NCBI GenBank assembly: GCA_036788295.1
Contig: DAIQNR010000004.1
Location: 47,187 to 111,186, forward strand
Direction: 5' to 3'
Length of the DNA stretch: 64,000 nucleotides
Origin: Myxococcota bacterium
Lineage (GTDB): Bacteria > Myxococcota > Kuafuiibacteriia > Kuafuiibacteriales > Kuafuiibacteriaceae
The notes under the pieces were generated by a model. It saw nothing but the letters and a program-made list of their open reading frames with translations, made no database searches and was not told the DNA's origin. This document shows, piece after piece, positions 11,433 to 59,783 of the stretch (the stretch's first letter is position 1; each line of letters starts with the position of its first letter). The position numbers and the translations under genes were made by a program.

Positions 11433-12203
11433 TCAGCGGTCGAGGTGCAGCAGCACCGGACAGTGATCGCTCGGGGCTTCGGACTCCCGGGCGCTCCGGT
11501 CGATGGTGACGCCTCGGGCCCGGGCCAGCACCGGCGCGGTGACGAGGATGTGGTCGATGCGCATGCCGAGGTCCCGCTCGTAGCCGTTTCCTCGGTAGTC
11601 CCACCACGTGAAGCGCCCGGGCGAGGGATCGAAGTGGGCGACCGAATCGGTCAGGCCCCAGTCGAGCAGGCGCTGAAACCGGGCCCGCTCGGCGGAGCTG
11701 ACGAACAGCTGCTCCCCTCCGCCGTAGCCGGCGTGCACGTCGCCGTCGCGGGGGGCGACGTTGAAGTCTCCGAGCAGCACCACCGGCGTGTCCGGGCCCG
11801 GGCCCTGCTCGAGAAACTCGACCAGGCGATCCATCCAGGCGAGCTTGAACCGGTACTTGTCTCCGCCGTAGCTCTGTCCGTTCGGCAGGTAGATGTCGAT
11901 GAAACGAATCCCGGCCACGGTGGCGGCGATGAGCCGCTTGTCCTCCTCTGGGGCAGACCCAGGGAAGCCTCGGACGACCGCCGCCAGGTCCTCCCTCGCG
12001 GCGATGGCGACCCCGTTGTAGGCGGGCTGGCCGAAATACACGACCTCGTAGCCGAGGTCCCCGAACCCGTCTTCGGGGAACTCTTGGTCGGTGATCTTCG
12101 TCTCCTGCAGGCACAGCACGTCGGGCTCGTTGTGTTCGATCCAGTCGAGCACGAGGTCCTCGCGGGCCCGGAGCGAGTTGACGTTCCAGGTGGCGATCTT
12201 CAT
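11433..12203 (-). CDS. xth: Exodeoxyribonuclease III / AP endonuclease
   Basis: [37 protein letters not shown]. Confidence 0.95.
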   Translation of the reverse strand: MKIATWNVNSLRAREDLVLDWIEHNEPDVLCLQETKITDQEFPEDGFGDLGYEVVYFGQPAYNGVAIAAREDLAAVVRGFPGSAPEEDKRLIAATVAGIRFIDIYLPNGQSYGGDKYRFKLAWMDRLVEFLEQGPGPDTPVVLLGDFNVAPRDGDVHAGYGGGEQLFVSSAERARFQRLLDWGLTDSVAHFDPSPGRFTWWDYRGNGYERDLGMRIDHILVTAPVLARARGVTIDRSARESEAPSDHCPVLLHLDR

Positions 12204-14251
12204 CCCGGGGGCCTTGACGGATCGGCGCCGCCTTGTCGAGCCGGAGCCTGATCATCGAAGGCTTCGACGAGCCTCTGCCACGCCGTCTCATCCAGCACCG
12301 GCAACGCGTAGACCGCAGCCGCGTCCCTCGTCCGGTCGGCCCGCTCGCCGAGCACCACGAAATCGGTGGTGCGGTTGACCCTCGGCTCCACCCGCCCGCC
12401 CTTTCGCTCGATCTCGTCCACGATGTGGTGGGCGCCGGCAGCGAAGCGCCCGTCGACGACCACCCGCTGGTGGCAAAACGGGGCCGGAAACGCGGCCCGA
12501 GCGTCGAGCAGGTCCACCCCCGTCGCCCGCAGCCGAGCCAGGAAATCGGGCCCGGGGCCGCGCAGCCACTCGAGCAGCGCCTCGAGCGCGCCCGGCTCGA
12601 CCCCTTCGAGATCGAGCAGCTCCGATGGCCGCATCTCGAACAGCCGCCCCAGGCTGAACGCCTGCTGCAGGACCAGCCGCGCCCCCCGCTCCCCGAGCTG
12701 ACGGATCCCGGCCCAGTACAGGACGCGCCAGCCGGCGAGCCGGGTCCACTCGGCGCGCTCCGCTGCGAATCGAGCCCCGGCGCCGGGGGCCATCCGGTCG
12801 ATTTCGTCGCCGTCGAGACCGAGCACGGCGGGCAGGTCGAGCGGGCCCCTCTCGGCGAGCAACCGGTCGATGAGGTCGGGCGAGAGGCTCGGGAGGCGGA
12901 GGCCCCGGGGCCCGGCGAGGTGGGCGAGCAGCGCCCGGTCCCGGCCCGGACAGCGCGGGCTCGCGCAGACCTTGTGCAGGCCGCCGCGGGGCGGCGCGGT
13001 GCAGCTCGGGCAGCCGGGCGTCGGTTCCGGCCCGACCGGGGAGAGGACCTCCGGGACCACCGCCGGGGCCACCCCGCCCGGACGAACCCGAACCGACTGC
13101 CCGGGCCTCAGAGAAACCAGGCCGGCGGCGCTCGCCGGCACCGGCGCCCGCTCCGGAAGCGGCGGACCGTCCGCCGCTCGGCCGAGCTGGACCACCGGCA
13201 GCAGCGTCCCGGTGCGGCTCACCGCGTGGTAGATCTTGTCCACGGCCGACACGCGGCCAACCGGCGGGAAAGCGAGGCGAACGGTCCGAGGGAGACCTTC
13301 GGGCGGGGGGCGGTGGTGGGTCAGGGTCCCCCCTTCGAGCGCGATCTCGAAGCTCGGGGCCGCTTGCTGCAGGGCGGCGACGAAATCGAGCACCTCCTGA
13401 AGCCCCTTGCACCGCCAGGTCAGGGGCATGATCGCGAAGCCCCAGCTCTTGAGCGCTCCGAGCATCTGCCACCACGAGTCGATGCCCGGCGCCTCGACCG
13501 CTTCCACCGCGAGCACTCGCAGAGGCCGTACGGCCGCGACCCTCGGGTCCGACGCGGCCAGCGAGTGGGCCACCGCCCCTTCGGGCAGGACGTACGGGGG
13601 CTCGCCGGCGTCGACCCGGGCCCGGTCGAGCGCCGCGAGGTCCGCGGTCCGGATCACCGCTCGGGCCAGGACCTCGAGCACCGGCGGGTAGGGAGGGGTC
13701 GGGGTGAGGGTCGAAGGACCAAAGCCCCGGTGGGACGGCTTGGTCGCGCGCGACTCGGTCGTGGACCCGGGGCGCCGAAGCCGCAGCGGTACCGTGCGCA
13801 CCGTCCGCACCGCCTCGGTCACGTCGCGCGCCATCCCGTAGACGTTCGACAACACCGCGCGCACGAGGACGCCGTCTTCGTAGCGGAGGCTGAGGTCCAC
13901 GCCGGACGGCTGGGCGCTCGCCACGTAGATCACCTCGCCCTCGGTCCGGGCCTCGCTCTTCTGATGGTGGGCCTTCAGCTCCGCGACCCCGTGGATCGCG
14001 GGCAAAAGGGACGGAGCGACCCCCTGCTCGCGGCGGCCGGGACCGACCGAGCCGAGCCGTCCCATCCGCCAGGATGGGCTGTCGAGAGGGGGGGGACGGT
14101 CCTGGTCCGACTCCCGCGCGAGCAGCTCGGCCATCGCCGCCCGGCGCTCCACTTCGGGGACCGCCGGATGCTCGAGCACCTCCGCCCGGTGCTCCAGGTC
14201 TCGGAGCCGCTGCCTGAGCCGTTCGAGGCTCTCGTCCTGGCTGGGGCGCAT
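12200..14251 (-). CDS. NAD-dependent DNA ligase (LigA)-like protein, apparently catalytically inactive (Ia, adenylation, OB, Zn finger, HhH, BRCT)
   Basis: [55 protein letters not shown] and RTTDFVVLG align with LigA, but KxDG reads QPSG. ATG start at 14251. Confidence 0.82.
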
Positions 14252-14621
14252 ATCGACCTTGACGGAGATGCCCTCGGCTCGTAGCGTGCCGGGGTCCGGT
14301 TGCCGCCGCCCGAAGCATAACCGTCTCGCTCCCGGGGCCCAAGCCCCGAACGAGGCGTTCGGGAGGGGGCGAACGTTCCCGTGCCTTCTTGGATGGGTGA
14401 GGTGGGGCAAACGCCCCTTCACGCCCTCGGCCCTCATGACGGGGGTTCCGGCCGTCCCGCTGGACGGCTCCGCCGACGGCGCGGCGATCACCCGAACCTC
14501 CTGCCATGACGTATCCACGCGCCACGCGGTTCGCAGAGCGCCCACCAGCGGCCGGGCCTCGTCCCGGCGCCTCGGCCAAGACCGAGGCCCGTCCCCGCCG
14601 CCCGAAACTCGAGGACATCCT

Positions 14622-16043
<1,422 letters not shown>

Positions 16044-24922: not shown

Positions 24923-26557
24923 ATGCTCGACCTCTCCGCCCCTCGCAGCGGCGTCCTCGGCCCTGAGCATTGGTTTTCGGACCTCTACGTGGCCGCCCTG
25001 GAGGGCCGCTTCACCGGCGGGGTGCTCATCCGGGCGGACGACGGAGATCGCGCCCTGTTCTTTCGAGCCGGGGACCCGGTCCACGCCGGGGGGGCCGGGT
25101 TCTCCGATCACCTCCTCGGCGAGGTGGTGGTGAACCTCGGTCTGGCGGCGCGGCCGCTCGTCGTCGACGCCCTTCGCTTCCAGGCGAGCATTCCCGAGGA
25201 GGAGCGGCCGCTGCTCGGGGAGGTGCTGACGGCGCGGCTCGGGCTCTCGAAGGACGCGGTCGACCGCGCAGTGCGAACCCAGACCGAGGCCCGAACGGCG
25301 GCCTGCTTCGCGCTCGGAGCGGGGAGCTTTCACGCCGCCCCGGGGGAAGACGAGCGGGTTCGCTCGGTCGGCAGGCCGGTCGATGGGTGGGCGGTTCTCC
25401 TTCGCGGGTTGACCGAGCACGGCTCCGCGGAAGAGCTGCGGGGCACCGCCGACCGATTGCTCGGTCGCGCCGTCCGCCTGAAGGGGAGCGCCCGCCAGCT
25501 CGAGGCGTTGACGAGCCTGAGCGAGCCGATCCGGCACGGCCTCAAGTACCTGCAGAAGCCCCGGAAACCGGATCAGCTGGAGCGGGCGCTGGACCGGCGC
25601 CTCGCTCGGGGCCTCCTGCGCATGCTCGAGCTGCTCGAGCTGCTCGAGCTGCTCCCGGTGGCCCGAGCCATCCCCATCCCCAAGGTGGCCGCGCGACTGG
25701 AGACGTTCAGGGAAGACAGCCCGAACCCGGCCCCCTCGCCCCGCCCCGCCCAATCCGAGCGGCCCGCGCCCTCCCGCACCGACCCCGCCGCCGCCCGGTC
25801 CGCGGACCGATCGCCGTTCTCCGAAGTGGAGCGTCGGTTCGAAGAGCTCGGGCAGCTCGACCACTTCGGGGTGCTGGGGTTGGCTCGAGACGACCCGCCG
25901 GACCTGGTCCGCCGCCGCTACACCGAGCTGGCCAAGCGCTTCCACCCGGACGCCTTCAGCGGTCGGAACGTCCCGCCCGACATCGAGGAGAAGATTCGCG
26001 CCCTCTCGGCCCGGCTCAACGAGGCCTATCGGGTGCTCTCGCAGCAGGAGGCCCGGTCCGAGTACGAGGCGCTGCTCGAAGACGAGCGCTTCGCCGGGGA
26101 CAGCCGCCGGGCCGATCAGATCCGCGAAGCGTCGCTCAAGGTGAAGATGGCCCTGGTGCACATCAAGAAGCGGGAGTTCGACAAGGGTCGCGCGATGCTC
26201 CGAGCGGCGGTGGAGGCCGACCCTCACTCCCGCGCCTACCAAGCCCATTTGGCCTGGTCGATGTTCGTCGACCCGAAGTTCGACCGAGAAGAGGCCAAAC
26301 GAGAAGGGCTGCCCCTGCTCGTTGGGGCGCTCGCCACCGAGAACGAGAACCCGGTCGTGCACTTCTATCTCGGCCGGGCCTACAAGGAGCTCGGGCAGAT
26401 GAAGCAGGCGCTGCAGCACTTCAACGCCGCCTCGAAGCTCGATCGAAGCTTCGCCGACGCGCAGCGCGAGGCCCGGCTGCTCGCGGGACGGCTCGAAAAG
26501 GATAAGAAGTCCCAGAGCGACGTGAAGGGAGCGTTCGGCAAGCTGTTTCGCCGGTGA
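24923..26557 (+). CDS. J-domain (DnaJ-like) protein with N-terminal DUF4388-like region and C-terminal TPRs
   Basis: HFGVLGL...KRFHPD (intact HPD); TPR-like helices; GGAGGG RBS. Confidence 0.85.
   Translation: MLDLSAPRSGVLGPEHWFSDLYVAALEGRFTGGVLIRADDGDRALFFRAGDPVHAGGAGFSDHLLGEVVVNLGLAARPLVVDALRFQASIPEEERPLLGEVLTARLGLSKDAVDRAVRTQTEARTAACFALGAGSFHAAPGEDERVRSVGRPVDGWAVLLRGLTEHGSAEELRGTADRLLGRAVRLKGSARQLEALTSLSEPIRHGLKYLQKPRKPDQLERALDRRLARGLLRMLELLELLELLPVARAIPIPKVAARLETFREDSPNPAPSPRPAQSERPAPSRTDPAAARSADRSPFSEVERRFEELGQLDHFGVLGLARDDPPDLVRRRYTELAKRFHPDAFSGRNVPPDIEEKIRALSARLNEAYRVLSQQEARSEYEALLEDERFAGDSRRADQIREASLKVKMALVHIKKREFDKGRAMLRAAVEADPHSRAYQAHLAWSMFVDPKFDREEAKREGLPLLVGALATENENPVVHFYLGRAYKELGQMKQALQHFNAASKLDRSFADAQREARLLAGRLEKDKKSQSDVKGAFGKLFRR
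25623..25654 (+). repeat. In-frame 9-bp tandem repeat (TGCTCGAGC x3.5) encoding LELLELLELL
   Basis: Read directly from the sequence. Confidence 0.8.
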
Positions 26558-26613
26558 GCCGGCCGGCGCTGGCCCGCGTCCGAGGGGGCGTGTACGGTCC
26601 GGGGCGATTGCGC

Positions 26614-28407
26614 ATGGCCGCCGGCCGCACCGAGCCCCCACCTCCGCCCGAGGTCGCCGCGACCCTCCTTCAGCAGGGATGCGGGCGCACAATCGGGAGG
26701 TACACCCTGCTTCGCCGCATCGCGAAGGGCGGCATGGCCGAGGTCTATCTCGCCCGGTCCGACGGCGCCTCCGGGGTGTCCAAGCAGGTGGCGCTCAAGC
26801 GGATCCTCCCTCAGCACGCCCACAACGAGCGCTTCGTGGCCATGCTCGTGGACGAAGCCAAGATCGCGGTCACGCTCGCCCACCCCAACATCGCCCAGGT
26901 GTTCGAGTTCGGCCTCGAGGCCGAGGACTTCTTCCTCGTCATGGAGCACGTCCCCGGGCCATCGCTCGCCGATCTGCTCCGCCGAATCGACGCTCGGGCA
27001 CCGCCAGGGCGAACGCTGGGGCTCCCGATCCGCCACGCGGTGCACGTCGTGGCCGAGGTCGCGCGGGGGCTCGAGCACGCCCACACCCGGACCGACGTTC
27101 GGGGGCGTCCGCTCGGGATCGTGCATCGCGACGTGTCCCCCCAAAACGTGCTCGTCTCGTACGGCGGGGACGTGAAGCTCATCGACTTCGGCATCGCCCG
27201 GGCCCGAAACCGGCTCGCCGAGACCCAGGCTGGGGTCATCAAGGGCAAGCTCCGGTACCTCGCCCCGGAGATCGCGGCCGGCGAGGAGCCGGACCACCGG
27301 GCCGACGTCTATTGCTGCGGGATCGTGCTGTTCGAGCTGCTCACCGGCGAGGCCCTGTACGCCCCGGCGTCCGATTTCGAGGCGATCGAGATGGCAACCC
27401 GAGGGGTCGTGCGGTCGCCGCGGGCCAGCAACCCGGCGGTGCCCGCCGAGCTCGACGCGCTCGTGCGGCGCACCCTGTCGAGGGACCGGGCGGGGCGTCC
27501 GCCGACCGCGAGGGCGCTGCAGGATGACTTGCGGCGCTTTCTCAACCACTTCGACCCGGGTTTCGTGGAGAGCCAGTTCGGCGAGTTCGTCAGCGAGCTG
27601 TTCGCCGCCGAGCGGGCGCGGGACCGAGCCCTCGATGTCGCGGCCGAGATGCTTTCCCGCCGCAGCACTGAGGAGGCGACCGAGTTCGGGCCAAGCCCGT
27701 ACCGGTCCATCGTGGCCGCCGAAGCGCCGGCGCCTCGGCCGGAGGCGGAGCCGGTCGAGGCGCAGCCTCCGCGCACCCGCGCCGCCCGCTGGTGGTGGGG
27801 GGCGCCGGTGGCCGCCGGCGCGCTCGCTTACGCCCTGGCCCGCCCCGCGCCCCCGCCGGATCCGGTTCCGGAAGCGGAAGCGGAAGCGAGCCCGATGCTC
27901 GGCACCCTCGAGCTATCGATCTCGCCGCCGGTGCCGGTCCGGGTCGAGCTCGACGGGGCGGTGCTGGCCGACGGGGCGACGCCGCCGCTGCTGCTTCGGG
28001 CCGCCCCCGGCTTGGTTCATCGGCTGGAGATCTCGGCCGACGGCTACGAACCTCATGAATCCAGGGCCGAGGTGGGGGCGGGGAGAACCACCCGGATCGA
28101 GCTCACGCTCGAGCCCAAAGCTCCACCCCCGACGACGACCGCGCCCGTGCCTTCGCCCCGCGGCCCCACGTCACCCCCGCCGGCGCAAGAGCGGCCCCGC
28201 CGACGGTTTGGCCACCTGCTGGTCAACAGCCGTCCGGCGTCGGTCGTCTGGATCGGCGGCCGAAAGCTCGGTGAGACCCCGGTACGCACCCGGCTGCCGG
28301 CCGGACGCCACCGGGTGACCCTGGAGGGACCGGGCGGGGCCAAGAAGGTGGTCATCGTGCAGATCCGCGCCGGTCATGAGGACCAGTTCACGTACCGGTG
28401 GCCGTGA
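26614..28407 (+). CDS. Membrane Ser/Thr kinase with PEGA-like extracytoplasmic domains
   Basis: [21 protein letters not shown]; TM segment WWWGAPV..; PEGA LVNSRP..GETP. Confidence 0.92.
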   Translation: MAAGRTEPPPPPEVAATLLQQGCGRTIGRYTLLRRIAKGGMAEVYLARSDGASGVSKQVALKRILPQHAHNERFVAMLVDEAKIAVTLAHPNIAQVFEFGLEAEDFFLVMEHVPGPSLADLLRRIDARAPPGRTLGLPIRHAVHVVAEVARGLEHAHTRTDVRGRPLGIVHRDVSPQNVLVSYGGDVKLIDFGIARARNRLAETQAGVIKGKLRYLAPEIAAGEEPDHRADVYCCGIVLFELLTGEALYAPASDFEAIEMATRGVVRSPRASNPAVPAELDALVRRTLSRDRAGRPPTARALQDDLRRFLNHFDPGFVESQFGEFVSELFAAERARDRALDVAAEMLSRRSTEEATEFGPSPYRSIVAAEAPAPRPEAEPVEAQPPRTRAARWWWGAPVAAGALAYALARPAPPPDPVPEAEAEASPMLGTLELSISPPVPVRVELDGAVLADGATPPLLLRAAPGLVHRLEISADGYEPHESRAEVGAGRTTRIELTLEPKAPPPTTTAPVPSPRGPTSPPPAQERPRRRFGHLLVNSRPASVVWIGGRKLGETPVRTRLPAGRHRVTLEGPGGAKKVVIVQIRAGHEDQFTYRWP

Positions 28408-28413
28408 TCGGTC

Positions 28414-30060
28414 TCAACCGGCCGGGGCGCGCGAACCGTGGCCCGGGAGGGTAGGACGGCGGCCAAGGACCACGGTCAGGGCTCGGGCGAGCTCGCTCGA
28501 GGGCGTGCCTGGCCAAAGCCCGATCGTGCCCCCGCGCAGCCGCTCCTCGGGCCACCCCGGCTTCAGCATGGCCGGGCCGACGAGGCGGGCCCCTTCCCCC
28601 GGCCACAGCACCCACACCGACCGGACCAGCGGCTGGCCCGACGCGTCGCCGATCCCCTCCCCGTACTTCCACCAAACCTCCTGCAGCGCGGTCCAGGGCG
28701 GGCCGCCGGCCTCCCGACGGAACTTCGCGTCGAGCACGTGCAGGTCGAGCGAGCCGTCGATCCACCGCACCTCGACCACCAAATCCGGGCGCCAAGGCCG
28801 ACCGGGGTGGAGCTTTCGGATCTCGCCCTCCCGACCGATCTCGGGCTCGTAGAGCAGGCGAACCGTGCGCAGCTCTTGGGTCCAGGTGGCGACCTCGCCC
28901 CGGGCGAGGGTCGAAAACCAGCCGGGATCGATCTCGAAAGTCCCCGACCAAGCGCCAAGCAGGTCCCCCAGGGCCCGAGCGACGACGACGGTGCACCACT
29001 GCTCCCACAGCTCGTCGAGGGCGCGAATCGGGGCCGGAGCGACCGAAGACTCGTCCTGCCCGTCCGCGATGAGAAAGGCGCGAAACGTCGTCCAGTACGC
29101 TGGCTCGGCGTCGACGCGCGGGGTCCGGAGCATGCGCGGGCCCCGGGGGCGCAGGTCCGGGAGCCCGGCCCGCAGCCGAATGGCGGCGATCTCCCTCCGC
29201 AGCTCGTCGATGCGCGCCCGCCGCCGCTCGAGACCCAAGGCGCGCGGCGCGTCGCGCTCCTGCCACAGGTTGCCGTGCTCGGTGACGAAGGCCTCTCTCG
29301 CTTCCCGGCCGGCCTCGAGCCGCCCGAGCTCTTCGCTGACGCGAGCCCGCAGGTCGGTCGCGGCGGCGTCGAGGCGATCGTACGCGGTCAGCACCCCCCG
29401 GTTTTCCAGGGTGTCGAGGTCGGCGCGGCGCTCCCGGCGCACCCCCACCGAGCGGCCGGTCGCGGCCGCCCGGACCGACGCCACCGGGTGGGTGGCGAGC
29501 CAGCGCACGTCCCGCGCGGTGCGGGGGCCGCCCACCGCCGGGGCCGCCCACACCTCCTCCCGGGCCCGGTGAAGCGGCCGGCGCCGGATCGCCGGAGCGG
29601 CCGACGCGGCGAGACCCACCGCCATCTCGAGCAGGCTCAGCTCCCGGTCCCGAGATCGCACCCCCTCCACCGTGGACACCGCCCCCGCCGAGAGGGACAG
29701 CCCCTCGGCGACCGCCTCGAGCTCGGTCACCAGGGCAGAGATCGCCTCGGCGACGAGCTTGTTCGGCTGCACGACGAAGCTCACGCTCCGGGCGTCGACG
29801 GCGACCTTGACCTCGCCCGCGACCTCGGCGAGCAGCCCGGGACCGGTCCAGCTCGCGAGGCCGCTGGCATCAGCCCGAAGCTCGATCTCTCGGTCCCCAA
29901 CGGTCAGCAGCACGAAGGCACCCGGGCGGTGGCCGCGGGAGCGAACCACGAGATCGCCCCAACCCCGCACGACCGGCCGCGCCTCGTCCTGGATCAGGGT
30001 CTCGCCGGCCACAACCTCCAGCTCGAGCCCCTCAGGTGTGGAAGAAGTCGTACCAGTCAC
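28414..30060 (-). CDS. DUF2357 / McrC-like PD-(D/E)xK nuclease
   Basis: VQPNKL, DTLENR, LWEQWC, RPD and LDAKFR; N-terminal beta-rich domain and an internal coiled-coil-like segment. Confidence 0.82.
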   Translation of the reverse strand: MTGTTSSTPEGLELEVVAGETLIQDEARPVVRGWGDLVVRSRGHRPGAFVLLTVGDREIELRADASGLASWTGPGLLAEVAGEVKVAVDARSVSFVVQPNKLVAEAISALVTELEAVAEGLSLSAGAVSTVEGVRSRDRELSLLEMAVGLAASAAPAIRRRPLHRAREEVWAAPAVGGPRTARDVRWLATHPVASVRAAATGRSVGVRRERRADLDTLENRGVLTAYDRLDAAATDLRARVSEELGRLEAGREAREAFVTEHGNLWQERDAPRALGLERRRARIDELRREIAAIRLRAGLPDLRPRGPRMLRTPRVDAEPAYWTTFRAFLIADGQDESSVAPAPIRALDELWEQWCTVVVARALGDLLGAWSGTFEIDPGWFSTLARGEVATWTQELRTVRLLYEPEIGREGEIRKLHPGRPWRPDLVVEVRWIDGSLDLHVLDAKFRREAGGPPWTALQEVWWKYGEGIGDASGQPLVRSVWVLWPGEGARLVGPAMLKPGWPEERLRGGTIGLWPGTPSSELARALTVVLGRRPTLPGHGSRAPAG

Positions 30061-33000
30061 CGAGCTCTTCCCCGCGCACCCTCAGCTCCTTGGTCCGAGC
30101 CGCGGAGCGGCGCCAGCCCCGCTCTTCGAACAGGGCGCCGAGCTGATCGAGCAGGGTTCGCCATCGCGGCCCGACCCCGCGCAGCGGGGGCAAGACCCGC
30201 TGAAGCACCTGGAGGTCCTCCGCCTCCGTCCGGTCGAGGACCCCGTCGGCGGCTCCTAGGTACCGCTCCATCGCCCGGCGGGTCCGGGCGGTCGGGGCGC
30301 CGGGCACCCGCGCCTCCTGCAGGAACTTCACGACCTCGGTGATGCCGCCGAGCGCCGCGGCCTCGGTGATCGGAGCCAGGGCCGACCAGGGCACGGACAG
30401 GCCGAGGTTGTCGTCCTCGGCTCGCCACAGAGGGGCGTCGGCCGACGGCTCCATCCACAGGACGCTCGCCCGGGACAGAAAACGAGGGGAGAGCCGCTCG
30501 ACCGTGTCGTCGACGTTGATGGTCGCGAGCATCCGCACCGAAGGCGGCACGGAGAAGGACCACGGGTACCGCTCGGCGTTGTCGGGATCGAGCTCCGGGT
30601 CGTAGAGGCGCACCGTGGGCGCGGCCGCCTCGAACGCCGACAGCATGCGAGCGAGGTAGTACTCGGGGGAGGCGAGGTTCAGCTCCTCGACCAGAACCGG
30701 CCACAGCCCCCCGTCCGCCTCCCCGTCCCGAGCCCGGAGAAGGTGCTCCACGAAGCCCTCGCTCGACGCGGTCCAGCGGTGCTCGGTCGGGTGCCAGAAA
30801 CCAAAGAGGGCCGCGTCGTCCTGCCAGTCCCGTCGGACCACCAGCTCGAGGTAGCGATCGCTGCCCGGCCCGTGGCCGAGCCGGCTCAGCACGCTGCGCA
30901 CGAACGTGCTCTTTCCCACCCCGGGGAGGCCGGCGAGCAAGGTCCACCGCCCGGTCCCGAGCGAGAGCACCAGGTTGGCCACCGCGGTTCGGTCCCAGGT
31001 GCTCCCCGCGACCGCGGTGATGAGCTCCTCGAGCGCCGGTGGCTCGCCCGGCCGAAACGGGCGGGCTCGGATCGGAGCTCGGGCCGCCTCCCTCGCCCCA
31101 CCGCCCCGAGGTCGCTCTGCACCGCCGAACGCGCCAAGCTGGGCGAGCAGCCGCACCTTTTCGTCCTCGAGCGCCGAACGGGCCGCGGCGAGCTCGGACT
31201 CGAGCCGCTCGATTTCGGCGCCGAGACGCTTCTCTTCCTCCGCGACCCGCTGCGCCACGGTGACGAGCGCCGTCTCCTTGGCCGCCAGCTCGGCGTCCAG
31301 TTCCGCTCGGCGGGCCCGCACCTCGGCCTCGTGCCGGTCGAGCTGGTCCGCCACCCACCGGGCCGCCGCCTCCGAGCGCGCCGCCTCCCCGTCCTTCGTC
31401 TCGAGCCACGCCGCGACCGCCTGCCGGCGAGCGTCGTCCAATGCTTCGGCCCGGGGGAGGAGGGCCCGCAGCCGGCTCGCGCGGATCGCGTACACCGAGG
31501 GAGGGAACTGCGGCGCCTGGTCGTCGGCGAGGAACCGTCGAAGGGACTCCGGCGACGGCGTCTGCTCGAGCTGGCGCGCCAGCCAGGCCGCCGCGGTCAC
31601 GTCGTCGAGGCGGTCGTGCACGCTCGCCCCGGCCGCCACGAGATCCTCGAGCGTCGGGGGGTCCGGAACGAGGCTCCGGGTCTCGTCGGCGATGATCCGC
31701 CCGAACAGCCGCTCGAAGTCGGCGATGGGCAGGCGCGCGACCGCGAACGCCGGTTCCTCCGGGGCAAGCCCGGTGGGCAGCAGCCGAAATGGGCCCTCGA
31801 CTGCGCTCCCGGTGCGCCGGAACACCGGGCCGAGCGCGTCGGCGCGCAGGTGGTTGTTGCTCCACAGCTCACCCCACGCCGACAGATGGTGCGAGGCGTC
31901 ATCCGGCGCGCCGGGGGTCAGCCGCAAGCCAGCCGGACCGGCCTCGGTCACGGCCGCCGTGCCCGGGGCCTCGATGCCGGCCAGGACATAGGCGAGCCGC
32001 CGGGCCCCGCCTTTGGCCTCGACCGCGACCGTCGCCGCCGGAGCGCCCGAGGCGAGGATCTCGGCGAGCTGCGCGAGCTCGTCGACGAGCCGCTCGGACG
32101 CGAGCCCCGCCGCTCTGCGGCTGGCCGCCCGTTCGATCGCGAGGGTCAGCGCGCCGGCCTCAGGGAGGGCGTCGATGCGCTCGGCGAGCGCCCACAGCTC
32201 GGGGCCGAGACGCTCGCGCTCCTGGTCGAGGCACGCCTCGAGCTCCCTACGGGCGCCGTGCAGCAGCTGCGCCACTTCCGCCAGCTCGTTTCTCTGCAGG
32301 GCTCGCTGCGCTTCCTCAGCCGCCTCGACCACCGCCTCGGCCCCGCTCGGGACCCGCAGCGCCCGCTGGAGCACGTGCTCGACCGCTTCCCGCAGCGGCG
32401 CCCGGGCCTCGCGCCACCGCGCGTCCACCGCCTCCGCCCAAGCGTGCAGGTCGGGCCCCGGCGCCGGAGCCACGAACCCGAGCTTCGACAGCTCCGCCGC
32501 CCGAAACTCGGCCCGCTCCTTGATGCGGACCAGGTCCGCGCCCTGGGTCGCCGCTTCGTGGTCCCGGTCGGCCTGCTCGATCCAGTTCTCCGCCTCGGCC
32601 AGCTCGAGCCGGTCGAGCGCCTGCTGGGCGGCGCCGAGGTCCTCGGCCGCTTCGCCCTCGTACTCGGCGAGCCGCCCGTCGAGACGGTCGGCGAGGTTTT
32701 GGACCCGGTCCGCGATCACCGCCGCCCACTCCGGTGGCTCGCGTCCGGCGCTGGCCGCCGCTTCCCGCGTCAGCACGAAGGCCACCCGCTGCCGGCCCTC
32801 GGGCGGCTTGGCGAGGGTCTTGGCCAGCAGGGTGCCCGGGGCGAGGATCGGCCGGTAGCTCGGTTCGGGGAGCGCGTCCTCGACCAGCGCCTTCGCGAGA
32901 TCGCGGCCGGCCTCGCAGTGGTCGTCGACCGATTTTTTCCACGCCGCCGGCAGCTCGGGCGCCGGGCGTTCGGAGCCGGGCCACAACGCGAGCGCCCGCT

Positions 33001-33649
33001 GGACCAGCTGGCGACGGGTCTCGAGCTGCTTGATGAGGTGGTTCCAAACCGGCGTGTTCGGGTCGACCCGGCGAGCCGCCGACCCCTCGCTCGCCCAGGC
33101 CGCGAGGTCCCCGGGGGTCGCCGACGCGAGGCGGAGCTTGGTCGGCTTGGGGCCCCCCTGCACGGCGGCCCGGAGGACGGCGTGGCACTCCGATATCGCC
33201 TCGGTCAGGATCTCCTTTTCGGCCGCAATCTTGCCGGGATTGCGCTCTGCGACCCTCTCGAGCTGGTCGAGCACCGCCGAGAACGCAGCGGGGCGCCGGA
33301 CCGCATCCAGCGGGCGACCTCCGCCGCTCACCAGGATGCGGTGGAGGACATCGCCGAGCTCGCCGGGGAGCTCGCGGTCGATGGACCACGCCGAGTGCAG
33401 GGGCTCGGCTCCGAGCGCCGCCACCCGCCACCAATCGAGCACCGCGCCGAGCCGAGGGTGGGTGCCGACGACGGCCACCGCCGCGGCGTTGAACCAAGCC
33501 AGCGCGCGGCGCCGGTCCTCATCCGGGTCCTCGCCCTCCCAGGCGAGGCGGTGCACCGCGCCCGCCGTCGCCTCCAGCGTACGAAGGGCGGACTGGGCGT
33601 CGGCGGGGCGCTCGCTCACGTCGGTCAGCCCTTCCTGTACCTCGTGCAT
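30032..33649 (-). CDS. Large McrB-family AAA+ GTPase (NxD type) with coiled coil and long N-terminal region (1205 aa)
   Basis: GLPGVGKST, VRRDWQD, VEELNLA.PEYY, TINVDD, RFLSRA; heptad-rich segment at ~31135-31390; GAGGGAG RBS before ATG 33649. Confidence 0.85.
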   Translation of the reverse strand: MHEVQEGLTDVSERPADAQSALRTLEATAGAVHRLAWEGEDPDEDRRRALAWFNAAAVAVVGTHPRLGAVLDWWRVAALGAEPLHSAWSIDRELPGELGDVLHRILVSGGGRPLDAVRRPAAFSAVLDQLERVAERNPGKIAAEKEILTEAISECHAVLRAAVQGGPKPTKLRLASATPGDLAAWASEGSAARRVDPNTPVWNHLIKQLETRRQLVQRALALWPGSERPAPELPAAWKKSVDDHCEAGRDLAKALVEDALPEPSYRPILAPGTLLAKTLAKPPEGRQRVAFVLTREAAASAGREPPEWAAVIADRVQNLADRLDGRLAEYEGEAAEDLGAAQQALDRLELAEAENWIEQADRDHEAATQGADLVRIKERAEFRAAELSKLGFVAPAPGPDLHAWAEAVDARWREARAPLREAVEHVLQRALRVPSGAEAVVEAAEEAQRALQRNELAEVAQLLHGARRELEACLDQERERLGPELWALAERIDALPEAGALTLAIERAASRRAAGLASERLVDELAQLAEILASGAPAATVAVEAKGGARRLAYVLAGIEAPGTAAVTEAGPAGLRLTPGAPDDASHHLSAWGELWSNNHLRADALGPVFRRTGSAVEGPFRLLPTGLAPEEPAFAVARLPIADFERLFGRIIADETRSLVPDPPTLEDLVAAGASVHDRLDDVTAAAWLARQLEQTPSPESLRRFLADDQAPQFPPSVYAIRASRLRALLPRAEALDDARRQAVAAWLETKDGEAARSEAAARWVADQLDRHEAEVRARRAELDAELAAKETALVTVAQRVAEEEKRLGAEIERLESELAAARSALEDEKVRLLAQLGAFGGAERPRGGGAREAARAPIRARPFRPGEPPALEELITAVAGSTWDRTAVANLVLSLGTGRWTLLAGLPGVGKSTFVRSVLSRLGHGPGSDRYLELVVRRDWQDDAALFGFWHPTEHRWTASSEGFVEHLLRARDGEADGGLWPVLVEELNLASPEYYLARMLSAFEAAAPTVRLYDPELDPDNAERYPWSFSVPPSVRMLATINVDDTVERLSPRFLSRASVLWMEPSADAPLWRAEDDNLGLSVPWSALAPITEAAALGGITEVVKFLQEARVPGAPTARTRRAMERYLGAADGVLDRTEAEDLQVLQRVLPPLRGVGPRWRTLLDQLGALFEERGWRRSAARTKELRVRGEELGDWYDFFHT

Positions 33650-33859
33650 GGGCGGTCTCCCTCGGCGGCGCGCTGGCCATCGGGCAGAGAATGGAGCTAT
33701 CCCGTTCGCAAAGGGTCGTCCAGTCGGCTCCGGACGTCGCCACCTGGCGCCGTTCGCCCACATAGGCAATAACCCTTAATTTCATGGCCGCGCATCAACG
33801 CGCCGCGGACGAAGGTCGGGTCGGGGGGAGGCTTGTCTGCCCGCGTCGGTCGTGCCGAA

Positions 33860-39280: not shown

Positions 39281-39429
39281 CGGGATCGGGAGTGCCGCAT
39301 TCCGTGGACCGCAGCAAGGTCCTTCACCATCGGAGCCGCCCAAACCGTCAACGGGCGCGGGCCACACCGAAAAGTCGGCGCGCATCGGCAACGCTGGCCC
39401 CGGCGAGCGAGCCGAGGCATGGTGTCGGG

Positions 39430-41445
39430 GTGCGGGTCTGTCCGCGGTGTCGGTCGGTCTACCAGGCGGACCTAGGGGCGTGCAGCCTGGACGGCGAGTT
39501 CTTGGTCGAAACCGCACAGGACCCGCTCGTGGGAGCCATGCTCGACCGCTACCAGGTGGTGGAGCTCATCGGGTCCGGGGCGACGGGGCGGGTGTACCGG
39601 GCTCGGCACGCCGAGCTGGACCGGTCGTGCGCCATCAAGGTGCTGTACGGGGACCAGGCCGCCGAGCCCCGTTTCCGGGAGCGATTTCGAAGAGAGGCTC
39701 GGTCCATCGCGCTCATCCGCCACCCGAACGTGGTGAGCGTGGAGGACTTCGGGGCCACGCCCGAGGGGCTGTGCTTTCTCGTGCTCGAGCTGGTCGAGGG
39801 AACGCCGCTGGACCGGGTTCTCGAGCGGAGCGGCTCGATCTCACCCGAGCGGGTGCTCGGCTGGGCCCGGCAGCTGGCCGCCGGGCTCGGCGCGGTCCAC
39901 GGCCATGGCTTCGTCCACCGGGACGTCAAGCCGAGCAACGTGGTGGTTCGCCCGGACGGGTCGGCGACGTTGCTCGACTTCGGCGCCGTCGGTCTGCCCG
40001 CCGCCGCGCCCGATTCCCGCCTCACCAGGCTCGGCACCTTGGTCGGGACGCCAACCTACATGGCGCCAGAGCAGAGCCAAGACCCGGCGGTGGATCCGAC
40101 CGCGGACCTGTATTCGCTCGGCGTGGTCATGTTCGAGCTCCTGACCGGGCGCCCCCCGTTCGAAGGGGCGACCCGCGCCGACGTGCTCATCCAGCACATC
40201 ACGGCCCCCGTTCCGCCGCTGCCGCCGCTCGGCGGGATCGAGCGGGTGGTGCAGCGCCTGCTCGAGAAGCGACCGGCGGACCGGCCCCAGACCGCGGCCG
40301 AGCTCGACGACCTGCTCGCGTCGCTCGAGGCCGACGCCGAGCAGCGAATCGACCATTTCGGGCCGCTCTCCGAGCCCCCAGAGGCGAGCTTCGAGGCCCT
40401 GGCCCGGGACCCGGGATGGGGAGATTGGATCCGGGAGGCGACGCTCGAACCGTACGGCGCCCTGGCTCCAGCCGAGCCGGAGCGCACCGACCGGCTTCAC
40501 ACCGATGCGGTCCGCGAGGTGCTCGCTCACGACCTCACCATCGACGAGGCAGCGATGCTGTTCGAGCCGGCGATGCCGGCCGACCGGCCGAGGGTGGTCG
40601 AAGACGACGGCAAGACGCAGGTCGATTTCTGTCCAGACTTGGTGGAGGAGCCGGAGGCGAGAACCGAGCTCGAGATGCCTCCGGTGGAGCTCGACCTCCC
40701 GCTCGAAGCGATCGCGTTCCCCGAGCCGCCCGCCGCGCTCTCGGAGGAACTCGTCGCCGAAGCCCCCCGGCGGGCCGACCTGGCCCTCGAGGTGCCCGAC
40801 CGCCTCGTCCGGGACCCGCCTACCCTGCTCGACGATCTGCACATCGAGCGAAACCCGCCGGGCGAGCGGGTGACCGAGCCGGCGGTGGCCACCCACGATG
40901 GGTCGGTTCTTCCTCGCCTACCGTCCGGGGCCTTTCGTCCGGTCGCGGGGTCGAACCTCGAGTTCGACGTGGAGCCGAACTTTCGCTCCGAACCGGAGCC
41001 CCTTTCTGACCCGGACCTCCAGAACGGCTCGGGGCCGATCCCGGTGGTGCCCGTGCCCCTGGGGCTCGACGACGCCGAGGGCTCGATCGACCGACCGGCC
41101 CCCGACCTGCCCGCGCCCCGCCCGTCTCCCCCGCCCCGCCTCGCGTCGGTTCGGCCAGCGACGACCGGCACCCCGTTCACCTCCGCCCCCCGGCTCGGCG
41201 AGGGGCCGAAAGAGGCCAAGCCGCGAGGCCGAAGCGGTCCTCGGCTCGTGGGCCTCGAAGCGGAGTCGACCGCCGCGGTCCGGCGACGGGCGCGGCCGGC
41301 GCCGCGCCCGGAGTCGAGGAGCCGGCTCGAGCGGTGGCTGCTGCCGCTCACCGTAGCGGCGCTCGTGCTGGCCGCGGCGGCGCTGACCGGAGCGCTCGTG
41401 GTGCGAGCGATGCAGGGCAACCTGCCTCCAGTGCTGCAGCGATGA
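39430..41445 (+). CDS. Ser/Thr kinase with N-terminal Cys motif, long acidic/Pro-rich linker and C-terminal TM segment
   Basis: CPRC..C; GSGATGRV, CAIK, HRDVKPSN, DFG, YMAPE; GTG start is inferred. Confidence 0.9.
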   Translation: MRVCPRCRSVYQADLGACSLDGEFLVETAQDPLVGAMLDRYQVVELIGSGATGRVYRARHAELDRSCAIKVLYGDQAAEPRFRERFRREARSIALIRHPNVVSVEDFGATPEGLCFLVLELVEGTPLDRVLERSGSISPERVLGWARQLAAGLGAVHGHGFVHRDVKPSNVVVRPDGSATLLDFGAVGLPAAAPDSRLTRLGTLVGTPTYMAPEQSQDPAVDPTADLYSLGVVMFELLTGRPPFEGATRADVLIQHITAPVPPLPPLGGIERVVQRLLEKRPADRPQTAAELDDLLASLEADAEQRIDHFGPLSEPPEASFEALARDPGWGDWIREATLEPYGALAPAEPERTDRLHTDAVREVLAHDLTIDEAAMLFEPAMPADRPRVVEDDGKTQVDFCPDLVEEPEARTELEMPPVELDLPLEAIAFPEPPAALSEELVAEAPRRADLALEVPDRLVRDPPTLLDDLHIERNPPGERVTEPAVATHDGSVLPRLPSGAFRPVAGSNLEFDVEPNFRSEPEPLSDPDLQNGSGPIPVVPVPLGLDDAEGSIDRPAPDLPAPRPSPPPRLASVRPATTGTPFTSAPRLGEGPKEAKPRGRSGPRLVGLEAESTAAVRRRARPAPRPESRSRLERWLLPLTVAALVLAAAALTGALVVRAMQGNLPPVLQR

Positions 41446-47168: not shown

Positions 47169-47378
47169 AGCCCAATCTCTCGTTTTGATAGTCTGCTTCG
47201 ACAGCGCGGTCGCGGTTTGGGGGACCCCGGCGCGGCTCCGCTGAGCGCAATCCCGAAGAACCCGCCGCAAATCCAGGGACTTGACCGGTTTGGGCGGATT
47301 TCGATGGACGATACCTGGACGAAATCTAGACTCCGACGCGACCGACCGGCCGGTTCCGGCTGGGGTCACGGAGGACCG

Positions 47379-49994
47379 ATGCAAACACATGTTCGATGGA
47401 TTCTGCCCCTTGCCCTCCCCGCCGTGGTGGCCCTCGTGGCCTGCGGGGGGGACGACGAAGACACCCAACCCGACGCCGGGATGACCACCGACACGGGGAC
47501 CCGGCCCGACACGGGGACCCGGCCCGACACGGGGACCCAGCCCGACACCGGCTCGGGGGACACCGGGATGATGCTCGGCACCATCGTCCAGGTCGCACAG
47601 ACCGCGGGGCTGACCAGCCTGCTCGAGGCGGCGACGGCGGCCGGACTGGCCGAGACCCTCGCGAGCCCCGGCCCCTTCACCGTGTTCGCGCCCACCAACG
47701 AGGCCTTCTCGGCCCTTGGTGCTGCGGCGCCGACCGATCCGGCGCTGCTCGCGAACGTGCTGCTCCACCACGTCGTGCCGGGCACGCTCGAGTCCGACGC
47801 GGTGCTGGGCAGGACCACGCTCGACACCGCGGCCAACACGTCTCTCGCCGTGGACGCGACCGGGAACCCGCCGACCGTAGGCGGCGCCCCGCTCGACACC
47901 ACCCGAATCGACGTGCGCGCCTCGAACGGCGTGGTCCACGTCGTCGAGCAGGTCATGATCCCGCCCACCGTGCTCGAGGCCGCGGCCGCCACCGCGAACC
48001 TCTCGACCCTGGTCACCGCCGTGGGCGCGGCCTCTCAGTCGGTTCGAGACGCGCTCGCCGGCGGCCCGATCACCGTATTCGCTCCGGTCAACTCCGCCTT
48101 CGCTGGCGTCGATCTGGGCGAACTCACCCAAGAGCAGGTGGACGCGATCCTCAGCTACCACGTCGTGTCCGGGCAGGCCCTCTCGGGGGACCTGACCCAA
48201 GGTCAGACCCTCACCACGGCTGGCGGCGGCACGCTCACCGTCAACGTCTCCGCTGAGGGGGTCAGCCTCACCGACCAGGCCGGGTCGCAGATTCGCGTCA
48301 CCACCCCAGACATCCGCCTCCTCAACGGGGTGGTCCACCTCATCGACGGCGTCCTGAACCCCGAGGCCCCGATGATGCAGGGGAACCTGGTGGAAGAGGC
48401 CACCCGGCTCAACCTGAACACGCTCTTGTCCGCGGCGGGGACCGCTGGGCTTGCCGGCACGCTCGCTACCGGCGGCCCGTTCACCGTGTTCGCGCCCACC
48501 GACGCCGCTTTCCTCGAGCTCGGGGCAGCGACGCCCACCGACCCGGCGCTGCTCGCGAACGTGCTCCTTCACCACGTCGTGCCCGGGCGCCAGGACTCGG
48601 CCGCGGTGCTCGCCGCCGAGTCGTTCCAGACCGCGGCCAACACCTCGATCGCGGTCAACCCCGCCTCGAACCCGCCCACGATCGGCGGCGCGCCGCTCGA
48701 CGCGAACCAGCTCGACGAGGCCGCGACCAACGGCATCATCCACGTGCTCGACCGGGTCATGGTCCCGCCGACGATCGCCCAGGCCGCCGCAGCCACGGCC
48801 GACCTCTCCACCCTGTTTGCCGCCGTGGGCGCCGCCGACCCTGCGGTCGCGGCCACGCTGTCCGGCCCAGGGCCGATCACGGTCTTCGCGCCCATCAACT
48901 CCGCGTTCCCTTCGGATGTCTCCGATCTGCTCGCGGACCAGGCCCGGCTGACCAGCATCCTCACCTACCACGTCGCCACCGGCCAGGCGCTGGCCGGGAG
49001 CCTCACCGATGGCCAGGTCATCACCACCGCGAACGGCGGGACCCTCACCGTGTCGGTCGGCGCGATGGGCGCCGTCTCCCTCACCGACGGGCTCGGGAAC
49101 ACGGCGTCGGTGGTCACCGCCGACATTCGGCTGCTGAACGGGGTCGTGCACCTCATCGATGGGGTGCTGAACCCGGGGACCATCCCCGAGCGGGCCATCG
49201 CCGCGGGGCTCACCTCGCTCGCCGGAGCGGTCGAGCGGGTGGGCCTCACCCCTGCTCTTCGCGGAGCCGGGCCGTTCACCGTGTTCGCGCCGAGCAACGC
49301 CGCTTTCGCCGCAGTGCCGGCGGATCTCTCGGCGGTCAGCGACGACGTGATCGCGAACATCCTGCTTCACCACGTCGTATCCGGCCGAAACGACTCGGCC
49401 GCCGTGGTCGGCGCCACGAGCTTCACGTCGCTCGCGAACCTGCCCCTCGCCGTGGCCTCGATGCCGCTGCGGATCGGAGGGGCCAGGCTGGGCATGACGC
49501 TCGACGTGCCCGCGTCGAACGGCATCGTGCACCTGCTCGATGACGTCATCGTGCCTCCGTCCATCGTGCAGGTGGCGGCGGCCACCCCCGACCTGTCCAC
49601 CCTCGTGGGGGCGCTCGGCATGACCACGTCCGCCACGCAGGACGCGGTGAACCCGAACACGCTGGCCGGCGATCCGCCGATCACCGTGTTCGCGCCGGTC
49701 AACTCGGCTTTCATGGGTCTCACCATTCCGCCCTCCCCGGCGCTCGATGGGCTGCTCGCCTACCACGCCCTGCCCTCGCAGGTCCTGTCCACCGACCTCC
49801 CGGTGGGCATGCCCACCATCGTTCAGACGCTCGCCGGACTGCCGGTCACGGTGACCCGGAGCGCGAGCGGCGACATCACCATCCAGGACGGCGCCGGCGG
49901 CACCGCGACGGTGGAGATGGGCCGGCGTGACATCCGCACCCTGACCGGCGTGGTGCACGTCATCGACCGGGTGCTTCAGCCCCCCGCACCCTGA
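47379..49994 (+). CDS. Lipoprotein with six fasciclin (FAS1) domains
   Basis: LVAC lipobox; six TVFAP motifs each followed by H1/H2 motifs (YHV or HHV; GVVH or NGIxH); GGAGG RBS. Confidence 0.92.
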   Translation: MQTHVRWILPLALPAVVALVACGGDDEDTQPDAGMTTDTGTRPDTGTRPDTGTQPDTGSGDTGMMLGTIVQVAQTAGLTSLLEAATAAGLAETLASPGPFTVFAPTNEAFSALGAAAPTDPALLANVLLHHVVPGTLESDAVLGRTTLDTAANTSLAVDATGNPPTVGGAPLDTTRIDVRASNGVVHVVEQVMIPPTVLEAAAATANLSTLVTAVGAASQSVRDALAGGPITVFAPVNSAFAGVDLGELTQEQVDAILSYHVVSGQALSGDLTQGQTLTTAGGGTLTVNVSAEGVSLTDQAGSQIRVTTPDIRLLNGVVHLIDGVLNPEAPMMQGNLVEEATRLNLNTLLSAAGTAGLAGTLATGGPFTVFAPTDAAFLELGAATPTDPALLANVLLHHVVPGRQDSAAVLAAESFQTAANTSIAVNPASNPPTIGGAPLDANQLDEAATNGIIHVLDRVMVPPTIAQAAAATADLSTLFAAVGAADPAVAATLSGPGPITVFAPINSAFPSDVSDLLADQARLTSILTYHVATGQALAGSLTDGQVITTANGGTLTVSVGAMGAVSLTDGLGNTASVVTADIRLLNGVVHLIDGVLNPGTIPERAIAAGLTSLAGAVERVGLTPALRGAGPFTVFAPSNAAFAAVPADLSAVSDDVIANILLHHVVSGRNDSAAVVGATSFTSLANLPLAVASMPLRIGGARLGMTLDVPASNGIVHLLDDVIVPPSIVQVAAATPDLSTLVGALGMTTSATQDAVNPNTLAGDPPITVFAPVNSAFMGLTIPPSPALDGLLAYHALPSQVLSTDLPVGMPTIVQTLAGLPVTVTRSASGDITIQDGAGGTATVEMGRRDIRTLTGVVHVIDRVLQPPAP
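47488..47541 (+). repeat. In-frame 18-bp tandem repeat x3 (DTGTRP linker)
   Basis: CCGACACGGGGACCCGGC twice, then one copy with a single substitution. Confidence 0.85.
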
Positions 49995-50010
49995 CCGAAC
50001 CCACGTTCGT

Positions 50011-50049
50011 GGGCTCGCCCGGGGCTCGAGGGAGAACCGAGGCGAGCCC
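50011..50049. terminator. Inverted repeat between the convergent fasciclin and mazF genes
   Basis: GGGCTCGCC...GGCGAGCCC; possible bidirectional terminator. Confidence 0.4.
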
Positions 50050-50090
50050 CCGAATCCTACCGCCTCGCCGACCGCTCGAAGCCCTCGACC

Positions 50091-50438
50091 TCATGTGAGG
50101 TCGAGGGCGATTCTCAGGCCGCGATCGAGCCGTCTCACTGCGCCCAAGGGAAGGTCTTTAGCGTGCTCGGTGAGCCAATCTCCGTCGAGCGTCATGACCT
50201 GGCACGTCAGCGCGACGCTCACCTTGGCCAACCCGGTCTCCTTCTCCTCGAGCCGGACGTTTCCGATCGCCTCAGCCCGCTGAAGGTTGGAGGTGAGCGG
50301 AACGACCATCACCGTTGAAAGGGCACTGTCGTTAAGAGGGTCAGCCTGAACGACGACCACCGGCCGAACGAAAGCCGGCTCGGATCCGCGAGGCTCGCCG
50401 AGGTCCGCCCACCAGACGCTTCCTCGCTCGATTACCAA
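50091..50438 (-). CDS. mazF: MazF/PemK endoribonuclease toxin
   Basis: WWADLGEPRGSEPAFVRPVVVVQ..N, VVPLTSN. Confidence 0.92.
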   Translation of the reverse strand: MVIERGSVWWADLGEPRGSEPAFVRPVVVVQADPLNDSALSTVMVVPLTSNLQRAEAIGNVRLEEKETGLAKVSVALTCQVMTLDGDWLTEHAKDLPLGAVRRLDRGLRIALDLT

Positions 50439-50671
50439 TCGACCCTCGAAAGCAGGTCCCGGGCCGCGGCGCGACGAATGCGCCGCTCCTCATCGCTGTC
50501 CACAGCCCGATAGCCCGCGTCGTAGGATCGTCGGATTTCATCGGGAGAGTGTCGGTCTAGGTAGGAGCGCGCGGCGCGCGCGAACAGCTCGCTCCGCGAG
50601 ATGCCGAGTTGTTGGGCCGTCCGCTCGACATCCTGAAACAGCTCGTCCGGGATGGAAATGGCGGTCTTCAT
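50432..50671 (-). CDS. RHH/CopG-type antitoxin of MazF
   Basis: MKTAISIPDELF...ISRSELFARA; overlaps the toxin start by 7 nt. Confidence 0.88.
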   Translation of the reverse strand: MKTAISIPDELFQDVERTAQQLGISRSELFARAARSYLDRHSPDEIRRSYDAGYRAVDSDEERRIRRAAARDLLSRVDW

Positions 50672-50677
50672 GCGGCT

Positions 50678-50697
50678 GGTATAACCACGGTCATACC
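50678..50697. promoter_or_regulatory. Probable mazEF operator
   Basis: GGTATAACC-AC-GGTCATACC, an inverted repeat with one mismatch, 6 nt upstream of the ATG. Confidence 0.65.
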
Positions 50698-50782
50698 TGG
50701 TGGTCAACGCGCGAGCCGTTGCCGACCAACCTCAGCACCGTCCCCGTGCCCGCGCCGTTCGTCGATCTGGTAGGCTCTCGCT

Positions 50783-50966: not shown

Positions 50967-51044
50967 CGCCTCGCTTCCTGGGGTTTTGGACCGAGATGAG
51001 CGTCGAGCCCGCGTCGCTCGCGCGGTGCTGCTTCTCGACAACGC

Positions 51045-59756: not shown

Positions 59757-59783
59757 GACCCCGCATCGGGTAGCGTCCCGGCC

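Follow-up and report, generated by a model that had tools for sequence, protein, structure and literature searches.

What becomes of a gene for the NAD+-dependent DNA ligase LigA once its catalytic residues have been replaced, and why would a bacterium keep it? LigA is generally counted among the universal, essential enzymes of bacteria and among the targets for antibiotics. The question is raised by a stretch of 64,000 nucleotides (hereafter the window) from a Myxococcota bacterium (assembly GCA_036788295.1, contig DAIQNR010000004.1, positions 47,187 to 111,186 of the forward strand), in which a LigA-like reading frame, here termed pLig (pseudo-LigA), lies between rho and the exodeoxyribonuclease III gene xth. 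We consider pLig a conserved derivative of LigA that arose in place, is catalytically inactive and most likely works as a non-enzymatic DNA-binding protein, a reading which we hold as probable but not as settled.

Residues 5-662 of pLig align with residues 4-669 of Escherichia coli LigA (2owo) with an E-value of 1e-28 (phmmer), and the alignment, a structural model and Foldseek all recover the LigA fold and its full domain order of Ia, nucleotidyltransferase (NTase), OB, zinc finger, HhH and BRCT (Table 1). An earlier note on this DNA had described a full-length LigA homologue devoid of the adenylation machinery, and the end-to-end alignment together with the motif losses bears this out: ELKLDG has become SAQPSG with Q114 at the place of the adenylated Lys, TRGDG has become LSNVYG, EVRGE has become EVLAR, NPRNAA has become LPEGAV, DGVVIK has become EGGTLT and KFP has become AFP. 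The note was also right that the domain order and the four zinc-binding cysteines are retained. The HhH and BRCT domains can be recognised by alignment and in the AlphaFold model, but both remain below Pfam thresholds and the HhH motif which the note counted as kept has lost most of its hairpin glycines. Only PF01653 passes in Pfam (E 1e-20), HHH_2 stays below threshold at E 0.02 and there is no BRCT match. The scores also stay below the NCBIfam cutoffs for LigA, with 135.8 bits against 444 for TIGR00575 and 144.8 bits against 369 for NF005932. The AlphaFold2 model, built with a 47-sequence alignment, has a mean predicted local distance difference test score (pLDDT) of 91 and a predicted template modelling score of 0.91, confidence being low only in a family-specific insertion and in the last ~11 residues. 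In the PDB, all Foldseek matches were to structures of LigA, with 2owo at E 4e-35 and the adenylation-domain matches having template modelling scores of 0.82-0.88 and root-mean-square deviations of 2.4-3.3 Å.

The frame of 683 aa is uninterrupted, as had been noted earlier, and it is not an assembly artefact, since three independent contigs encode exactly the same protein. Upstream it stays open to 14707, and one gene caller puts the start at GTG 14491; the ATG at 14251 is backed by the N-termini of the homologues P0012 and P0005, which begin at the same place, and is preceded by an AAGG motif 7-10 nt upstream, in a stretch that is conserved in L002 and L005. The sequence just 5' of this ATG, GTCAAGGTCGAT at window positions 14252-14266, would translate in frame as 'VKVD' and has been kept in three lineages (the window, L002 and L005); rather than being coding, it is probably a conserved leader or an element for ribosome binding.

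The loss of catalytic residues is a property of a whole protein family. Residues are given in E. coli numbering, which was rebuilt from the printed alignment and checked on known residues, and were tabulated over 42 family and 10 canonical sequences. The adenylated K115 is Thr in 36 of the 42 family sequences and Lys in none, and among all ~50 family sequences inspected the motif I Lys occurs in 0. E173, K290 and K314 are missing in almost every member, R277 survives in a single one of the 42, and E113, D117 and W309 are also lost family-wide. Five of the six AMP-contacting residues are gone throughout the family, and neither the window copy nor most of the other members still have the nicotinamide mononucleotide (NMN) contacts Y22, D32, Y35 and D36. 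A His/Glu-rich motif, EHRxHVLEHP, is conserved in the family at residues 20-29 (window 14165-14194) of this former NMN-binding domain. With this set of residues, pLig would be unable to adenylate itself or to seal nicks.

Not every active-site position has changed, as G118 is retained, D285 is conservatively replaced by Glu, and R136, D138 and G139 are kept in 35-41 of the 42 members. Together with K171 and K268, which are invariant in an alignment of 37 sequences, these positions could be taken to mean that pLig is still an enzyme, acting through a relocated nucleophile, with another cofactor, or in step 3 only on pre-adenylated nicks. We find this scarcely credible. K171, which lies in the conserved insertion, was ruled out as an alternative catalytic Lys as it is not conserved in the wider members P0215, P0217 and P0220, and K268 corresponds in the alignment to a Lys of E. 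coli LigA that has no catalytic role. Besides the AMP and NMN contacts, the residues of step 3 itself (D117, E173, R277, K290 and K314) have been lost.

A search of 5.8 billion proteins recovered 42 relatives of pLig, which share 40-57% identity with it and score 313-731 bits, whereas no canonical LigA exceeded 157 bits. When the family profile was run against 1.84 billion cluster representatives in an exhaustive HMMER search, 12-13 clusters scored 553 bits or more, followed by a gap down to the canonical LigAs at 369 bits or less. A genome scan with the window pLig as single query gave no match, in a collection that does not include the MAG (metagenome-assembled genome) of the window itself. 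The family thus delimited holds ~50 sequences, forming 12-13 clusters at 50% identity, all in one uncultured Myxococcota clade, and its assignable members are metagenome-assembled genomes (MAGs) labelled Myxococcota, Myxococcales or 'Deltaproteobacteria'. These ~50 members are intact full-length open reading frames (ORFs) or fragments truncated by contig ends, and frame disruption was seen in none. The 37-sequence alignment has 95 invariant columns, and the family possesses invariant motifs of its own, including GRARARLLHxxGPRGL and DEIERRGG. An insertion of 25-30 aa, flexible, rich in Ser, Thr and Pro and not present in canonical LigA, is also shared (TESRxTK...GPST...PVPPFP). The most conserved part within the family is the NTase domain, with 58% mean identity. 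As JGI annotates members as 'DNA ligase (NAD+)', automated surveys could mistake a dead gene for the essential ligase; NCBI lists one member as 'hypothetical protein'.

The pair L003 and L004 gives a nonsynonymous rate (dN) of 0.069 and a synonymous rate (dS) of 0.52, that is a dN/dS of 0.13. Calibrated against Rho, the rate of evolution of pLig is about double that of canonical LigA: where Rho identity is ~95%, pLig is 55-59% identical compared with ~76% for canonical LigA of Myxococcia, and where it is ~90% the values are ~40% and ~66%. The Rho-calibrated rates, the dN/dS of this pair and the invariant columns indicate that the constraint on pLig is relaxed but real. Between the window and L090 (ENA ERZ26696514, a contig of 6.05 Mb), Rho is 96.9% identical and synonymous sites are fully saturated; the 22-kb locus of L090 has a GC content of 55% against 71% in the window, a large change in base composition for organisms so closely related.

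When the N-terminus of Rho, which is specific to the clade, was used for a scan, close relatives came to light in which no LigA-like gene adjoins rho. L148, with a Rho 97.8% identical, has the same cNMP-binding, FGE-sulfatase and patatin neighbours, whereas pLig is absent and has left no remnant; L149-L152 also do not have pLig beside rho. In a neighbour-joining tree of Rho, L150-L152 cluster together and L148 stands separately, so pLig has been lost at least twice independently. As close relatives have lost it, the gene is dispensable and the ligase of the pLig-less genomes must be encoded elsewhere. The assemblies of these relatives were not found among the matches of the pLig scan, which was unsaturated.

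The surroundings of pLig reveal where it came from. It adjoins rho divergently in 8 of the 8 GTDB loci that include upstream DNA and in L090, L091 and L229. Canonical ligA is likewise divergent from rho in 14 Myxococcota loci, and the same arrangement was found in all 25 loci of Archangium, Vitiosangium, Myxococcus, Corallococcus and Pyxidicoccus. Because this rho-adjacent site is shared with canonical ligA, pLig is its positional orthologue, and the term 'paralogue' used in the earlier note is not borne out. The hidden Markov model (HMM) of the pLig family also scores the LigAs of Myxococcota higher than those of other phyla (324 against 299 bits, p 6e-7). The simplest reading is that pLig is not a relocated paralogue but diverged in place from an ancestral rho-adjacent ligA, which would have lost its NAD+/NMN-binding and nucleotidyltransferase residues there, in a single uncultured clade of Myxococcota. 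As the dead copy occupies the ancestral ligA site, ligase activity should be supplied by another gene, and a working replicative ligase would be encoded elsewhere in the genome.

The retained residues point to the role that pLig may have taken up. The OB motifs R333, G335, R379, G381, V383 and P385 are kept in 39-42 of the 42 family members, R333, G335 and P385 in every one. Among the Arg contacts to the DNA backbone, R200 is kept in 23 members (with Lys in a further 5), R208 in 33 and R218 in 40. Compared with canonical LigA, the pLig family has a higher content of basic residues in its NTase, OB and HhH segments. The OB and zinc-finger motifs, the Arg contacts and these basic segments argue for DNA binding in the absence of catalysis, and pLig may thus act as a clamp on nicks or duplex DNA, or as a platform.

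Several observations weigh against this reading. DNA binding is deduced from retained motifs, and few of the HhH hairpin glycines, which form the main element by which LigA binds DNA non-specifically, are left in the family. All members come from MAGs or metagenomes, and L003/L004 is the only pair with unsaturated dS, all other pairs being saturated. No second LigA-like gene was detected by tblastn in the window or, within 8-10 kb on either side, in any pLig locus, and a Pfam scan that covered part of the window ORFs, with 49,994-59,784 left unannotated, found no other ligase domain. Apart from these, the window copy has also lost R136, D138, G139, R200 and R208, and of the 176 positions at which the other members are at least 90% conserved it deviates at 19, which ranks it third from the bottom among 37 sequences. 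Owing to these extra losses the window copy may be less functional than typical members.

Such deviation, including the lost RGDG motif, is what would be expected if the gene, or at least its window copy, were a relic, a former ligA drifting to loss without any function. The roughly doubled rate of evolution and the two or more losses agree with this. We nevertheless regard a relic as very unlikely, since frame disruption is absent from ~50 members, the window ORF is unbroken and recurs identically on three contigs, and the 95 invariant columns, the dN/dS of 0.13 and the newly conserved motifs speak of continuing constraint. The earlier note had held that this is not a decaying pseudogene, and the same losses throughout a conserved family under purifying selection confirm it; orthologues are patchy to the extent of the losses described, but their evolution is not neutral.

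The replaced hairpin glycines bear on another alternative, namely that pLig is a protein-binding regulator, in which the dead ligase contacts the true ligase, the beta clamp, RNA polymerase or Rho and not DNA. This is unlikely, though several features are in keeping with it. The NTase domain is the best conserved part despite its catalytic loss, the family has gained conserved motifs and a conserved flexible insertion, and linkage to rho is invariant among pLig loci. Besides, the top Foldseek match is the published RpoB-LigA contact model PDB 9a6z. The linkage to rho, however, was inherited from canonical ligA and hence carries no information on pLig itself, the OB, zinc-finger and Arg residues for DNA contact have been kept, and no partner was identified. 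The 9a6z match, to chain B, is to an integrative cross-linking model, and this model is of possible interest in its own right given that ligA or pLig is linked to rho throughout Myxococcota.

The ligase that would replace pLig was sought beyond the loci as well. A genome scan with the canonical Myxococcota LigA P0044 had no pLig assembly among the at least 600 matches listed, and the P0013 contig contains no second ligase. P0222, the canonical LigA closest to the pLig HMM, was considered as the ligase of the clade and set aside, as it is an orphan in a MAG that looks unrelated, could not be tied to the clade, and has a nearest relative of 65% identity. L093 and L094, which carry P0222 and P0361 and come from high-GC 'Deltaproteobacteria' MAGs, do not have canonical ligA beside rho; there it lies divergently to rpmE (L31), with an acylphosphatase gene behind it. 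The clade might be imagined to have no functional NAD+-dependent ligase at all, an ATP-dependent or unrecognised ligase serving replication and ligA being kept for a second, non-catalytic role in binding DNA or the replisome; we consider this improbable.

As to xth, which lies behind pLig, the earlier note had described the two genes as translationally coupled and had suggested that pLig perhaps recruits Xth. The xth gene encodes a genuine exodeoxyribonuclease III (264 bits for TIGR00195 against a cutoff of 183), and the stop of pLig (TGA 12202-12200) does overlap the start of xth (ATG 12203-12201), the junction reading GGGATGAAG. In the nearest relatives of the window, however, xth lies 3-9 kb off and on the opposite strand; the order in P0003, P0006 and P0013 is rho, pLig, a cNMP-binding gene (-), an FGE-sulfatase gene (+), further genes, xth (-) and def (+). 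Compared with these relatives, the block that separates pLig from def is inverted in the window, which has put xth head-to-tail behind pLig. The inversion accounts both for the overlap and for the unique disordered tail of pLig, which runs on to the first stop inside the start of xth. The overlap of 4 bp is hence the outcome of a recent local inversion in the window lineage and not a property of the family. At the other pLig loci xth is separated from pLig by 2-9 kb and in most cases has the opposite orientation, or it does not occur within 8 kb. Co-expression of pLig and xth is plausible in the window lineage, whereas functional coupling across the family is not supported; of the expectation that orthologues would sit between xth and rho with a dN/dS below 1, the second part stands for one pair and the first does not extend to the family.

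The role proposed for this arrangement resembles that of XRCC1, a DNA-encircling body and a BRCT domain bringing Xth to nicks or abasic sites. Apart from the overlap and the retained BRCT fold, it can draw on the presence of xth within 10 kb in 8 of ~12 informative pLig loci, which would be a trait of the clade since xth was found near none of the canonical rho-ligA pairs in 25 cultured Myxococcia loci. Yet the pLig-less relatives L149, L150 and L152 keep xth as the immediate upstream neighbour of rho and in the same orientation (in L152 after a dihydroorotase-like gene), so the position of xth is independent of pLig. As the overlap is confined to the window lineage and the pLig tail that enters xth is unique and disordered, recruitment of Xth has no family-wide support, and we think it rather unlikely.

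Our reading of pLig as an inactive, DNA-binding derivative of LigA can be set against known systems. With canonical LigA (TIGR00575 / PRK07956; 2owo) it shares the order of six modules, the fold, the Cys4 finger and the OB motifs 'GRxG' and 'R-G-V-P', and with that of Myxococcia also the site beside rho. It differs in having no adenylated Lys, no motif III Glu, no Lys in motifs IV and V and no NMN residues, in its insertion of 25-30 aa and degenerate HhH glycines, in being dispensable, and in scoring 136-145 bits against cutoffs of 369-444. LigB of E. coli, a second NAD+-dependent ligase of enterobacteria, is another diverged LigA-type protein. It keeps the catalytic motifs and weak ligase activity, and is devoid of BRCT and of two of the four zinc cysteines. 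pLig is the reverse of LigB, having all domains and the four cysteines but no catalytic residues. XRCC1, the eukaryotic scaffold of base-excision repair, is a possible functional analogy only, as a non-enzymatic repair platform with BRCT domains, there being no homology beyond the BRCT fold.

The nearest precedent is found in high-light Prochlorococcus, where an ATP-dependent ligase has replaced LigA and truncated LigA genes persist on genomic islands (10.1101/2020.05.11.089284), showing that LigA is not strictly universal. Those genes and pLig are alike in being presumably inactive derivatives of LigA in cells where the real ligase is another gene. The Prochlorococcus genes, however, encode fewer than 260 aa (Ia and NTase only) and lie on mobile islands without synteny, and the ATP-dependent ligase took over the ligA locus (10.1101/2020.05.11.089284), whereas pLig is full length, conserved and at the ancestral locus. 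In the literature searched for dead LigA or Myxococcota LigA, there was no description of a full-length, catalytically dead LigA. For the pLig clade, the replicative ligase would have to be re-assigned to another gene, either a duplicate ligA or an ATP-dependent ligase. The family suggests that the LigA scaffold may be kept for something besides ligation, and it offers a natural experiment on what the non-catalytic domains of LigA do. Should the clade be devoid of LigA altogether, it would be a second exception to the rule that LigA serves replication, independent of high-light Prochlorococcus, and it would give the first evidence that the scaffold of LigA has a function independent of ligation.

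Table 1. Features of pLig and its immediate neighbours in the window (aa, amino acids; CDS, coding sequence; res, residues of pLig).
Feature	Coordinates	Strand	Remarks
pLig (pseudo-LigA) CDS	12200..14251	-	ATG 14251 to TGA 12202-12200; 683 aa, uninterrupted
Domain Ia remnant, res 1-70	14042..14251	-	NMN-binding Y22, D32, Y35, D36 (E. coli numbering) replaced
Nucleotidyltransferase-fold domain, res 71-330	13262..14041	-	PF01653, E 1e-20; without motifs I, III, IV and V
Motif I remnant SAQPSG	13901..13918	-	Q114 (CAG 13910-13912) in place of the adenylated Lys
LSNVYG replacing (T)RGDG	13835..13852	-	Loss particular to the window copy
Ser/Thr/Pro-rich insertion, res 160-190 (...GPST...PPYPP)	13682..13774	-	Family-specific; absent in canonical LigA; low pLDDT
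OB domain	13043..13261	-	Equivalents of R333, G335, R379, V383 and P385 retained
Cys4 zinc finger C414, C417, C429, C434	12950..13012	-	Invariant in 42/42 family sequences
HhH-like helical domain	12494..12943	-	Hairpin glycines degenerate
BRCT-fold domain	12251..12484	-	Aligns with LigA BRCT (including 9vse_A, E 0.006); beta-alpha-beta fold in the model
Unique C-terminal tail, ~16 aa	12203..12250	-	Predicted disordered, pLDDT <50; absent from homologues; runs into xth
ATGA overlap of pLig stop and xth start	12200..12203	-	Read from the sequence
xth, exodeoxyribonuclease III	11433..12203	-	256 aa; TIGR00195, PF03372
Divergent pLig-rho intergenic region	14252..14621		Between the pLig and rho starts
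rho, divergent neighbour of pLig	14622..16043	+	473 aa; linkage conserved in pLig loci and in Myxococcota canonical ligA loci

In the intergenic region between pLig and rho, an Rfam search gave no match and a scan for sigma-70-like promoters found none. The N-terminus of Rho (window 14622-14790) bears a charged extension of ~57 aa (...EEENYEDVE), which is variable across the clade and precedes the conserved core. Elsewhere in the window, a gene of the PD-(D/E)XK nuclease family (PDDEXK_7; 28414-30060, minus strand) overlaps the end of a 1245-aa ORF without Pfam match (30032-33769, minus strand), and the two could be a two-gene module. Positions 47217-49994 (plus strand) encode a 925-aa protein with six fasciclin (FAS1) repeats, near which lie genes for Ser/Thr kinases at 26554-28407, 39292-41445 and 62182-63819, one of them with a PEGA domain.

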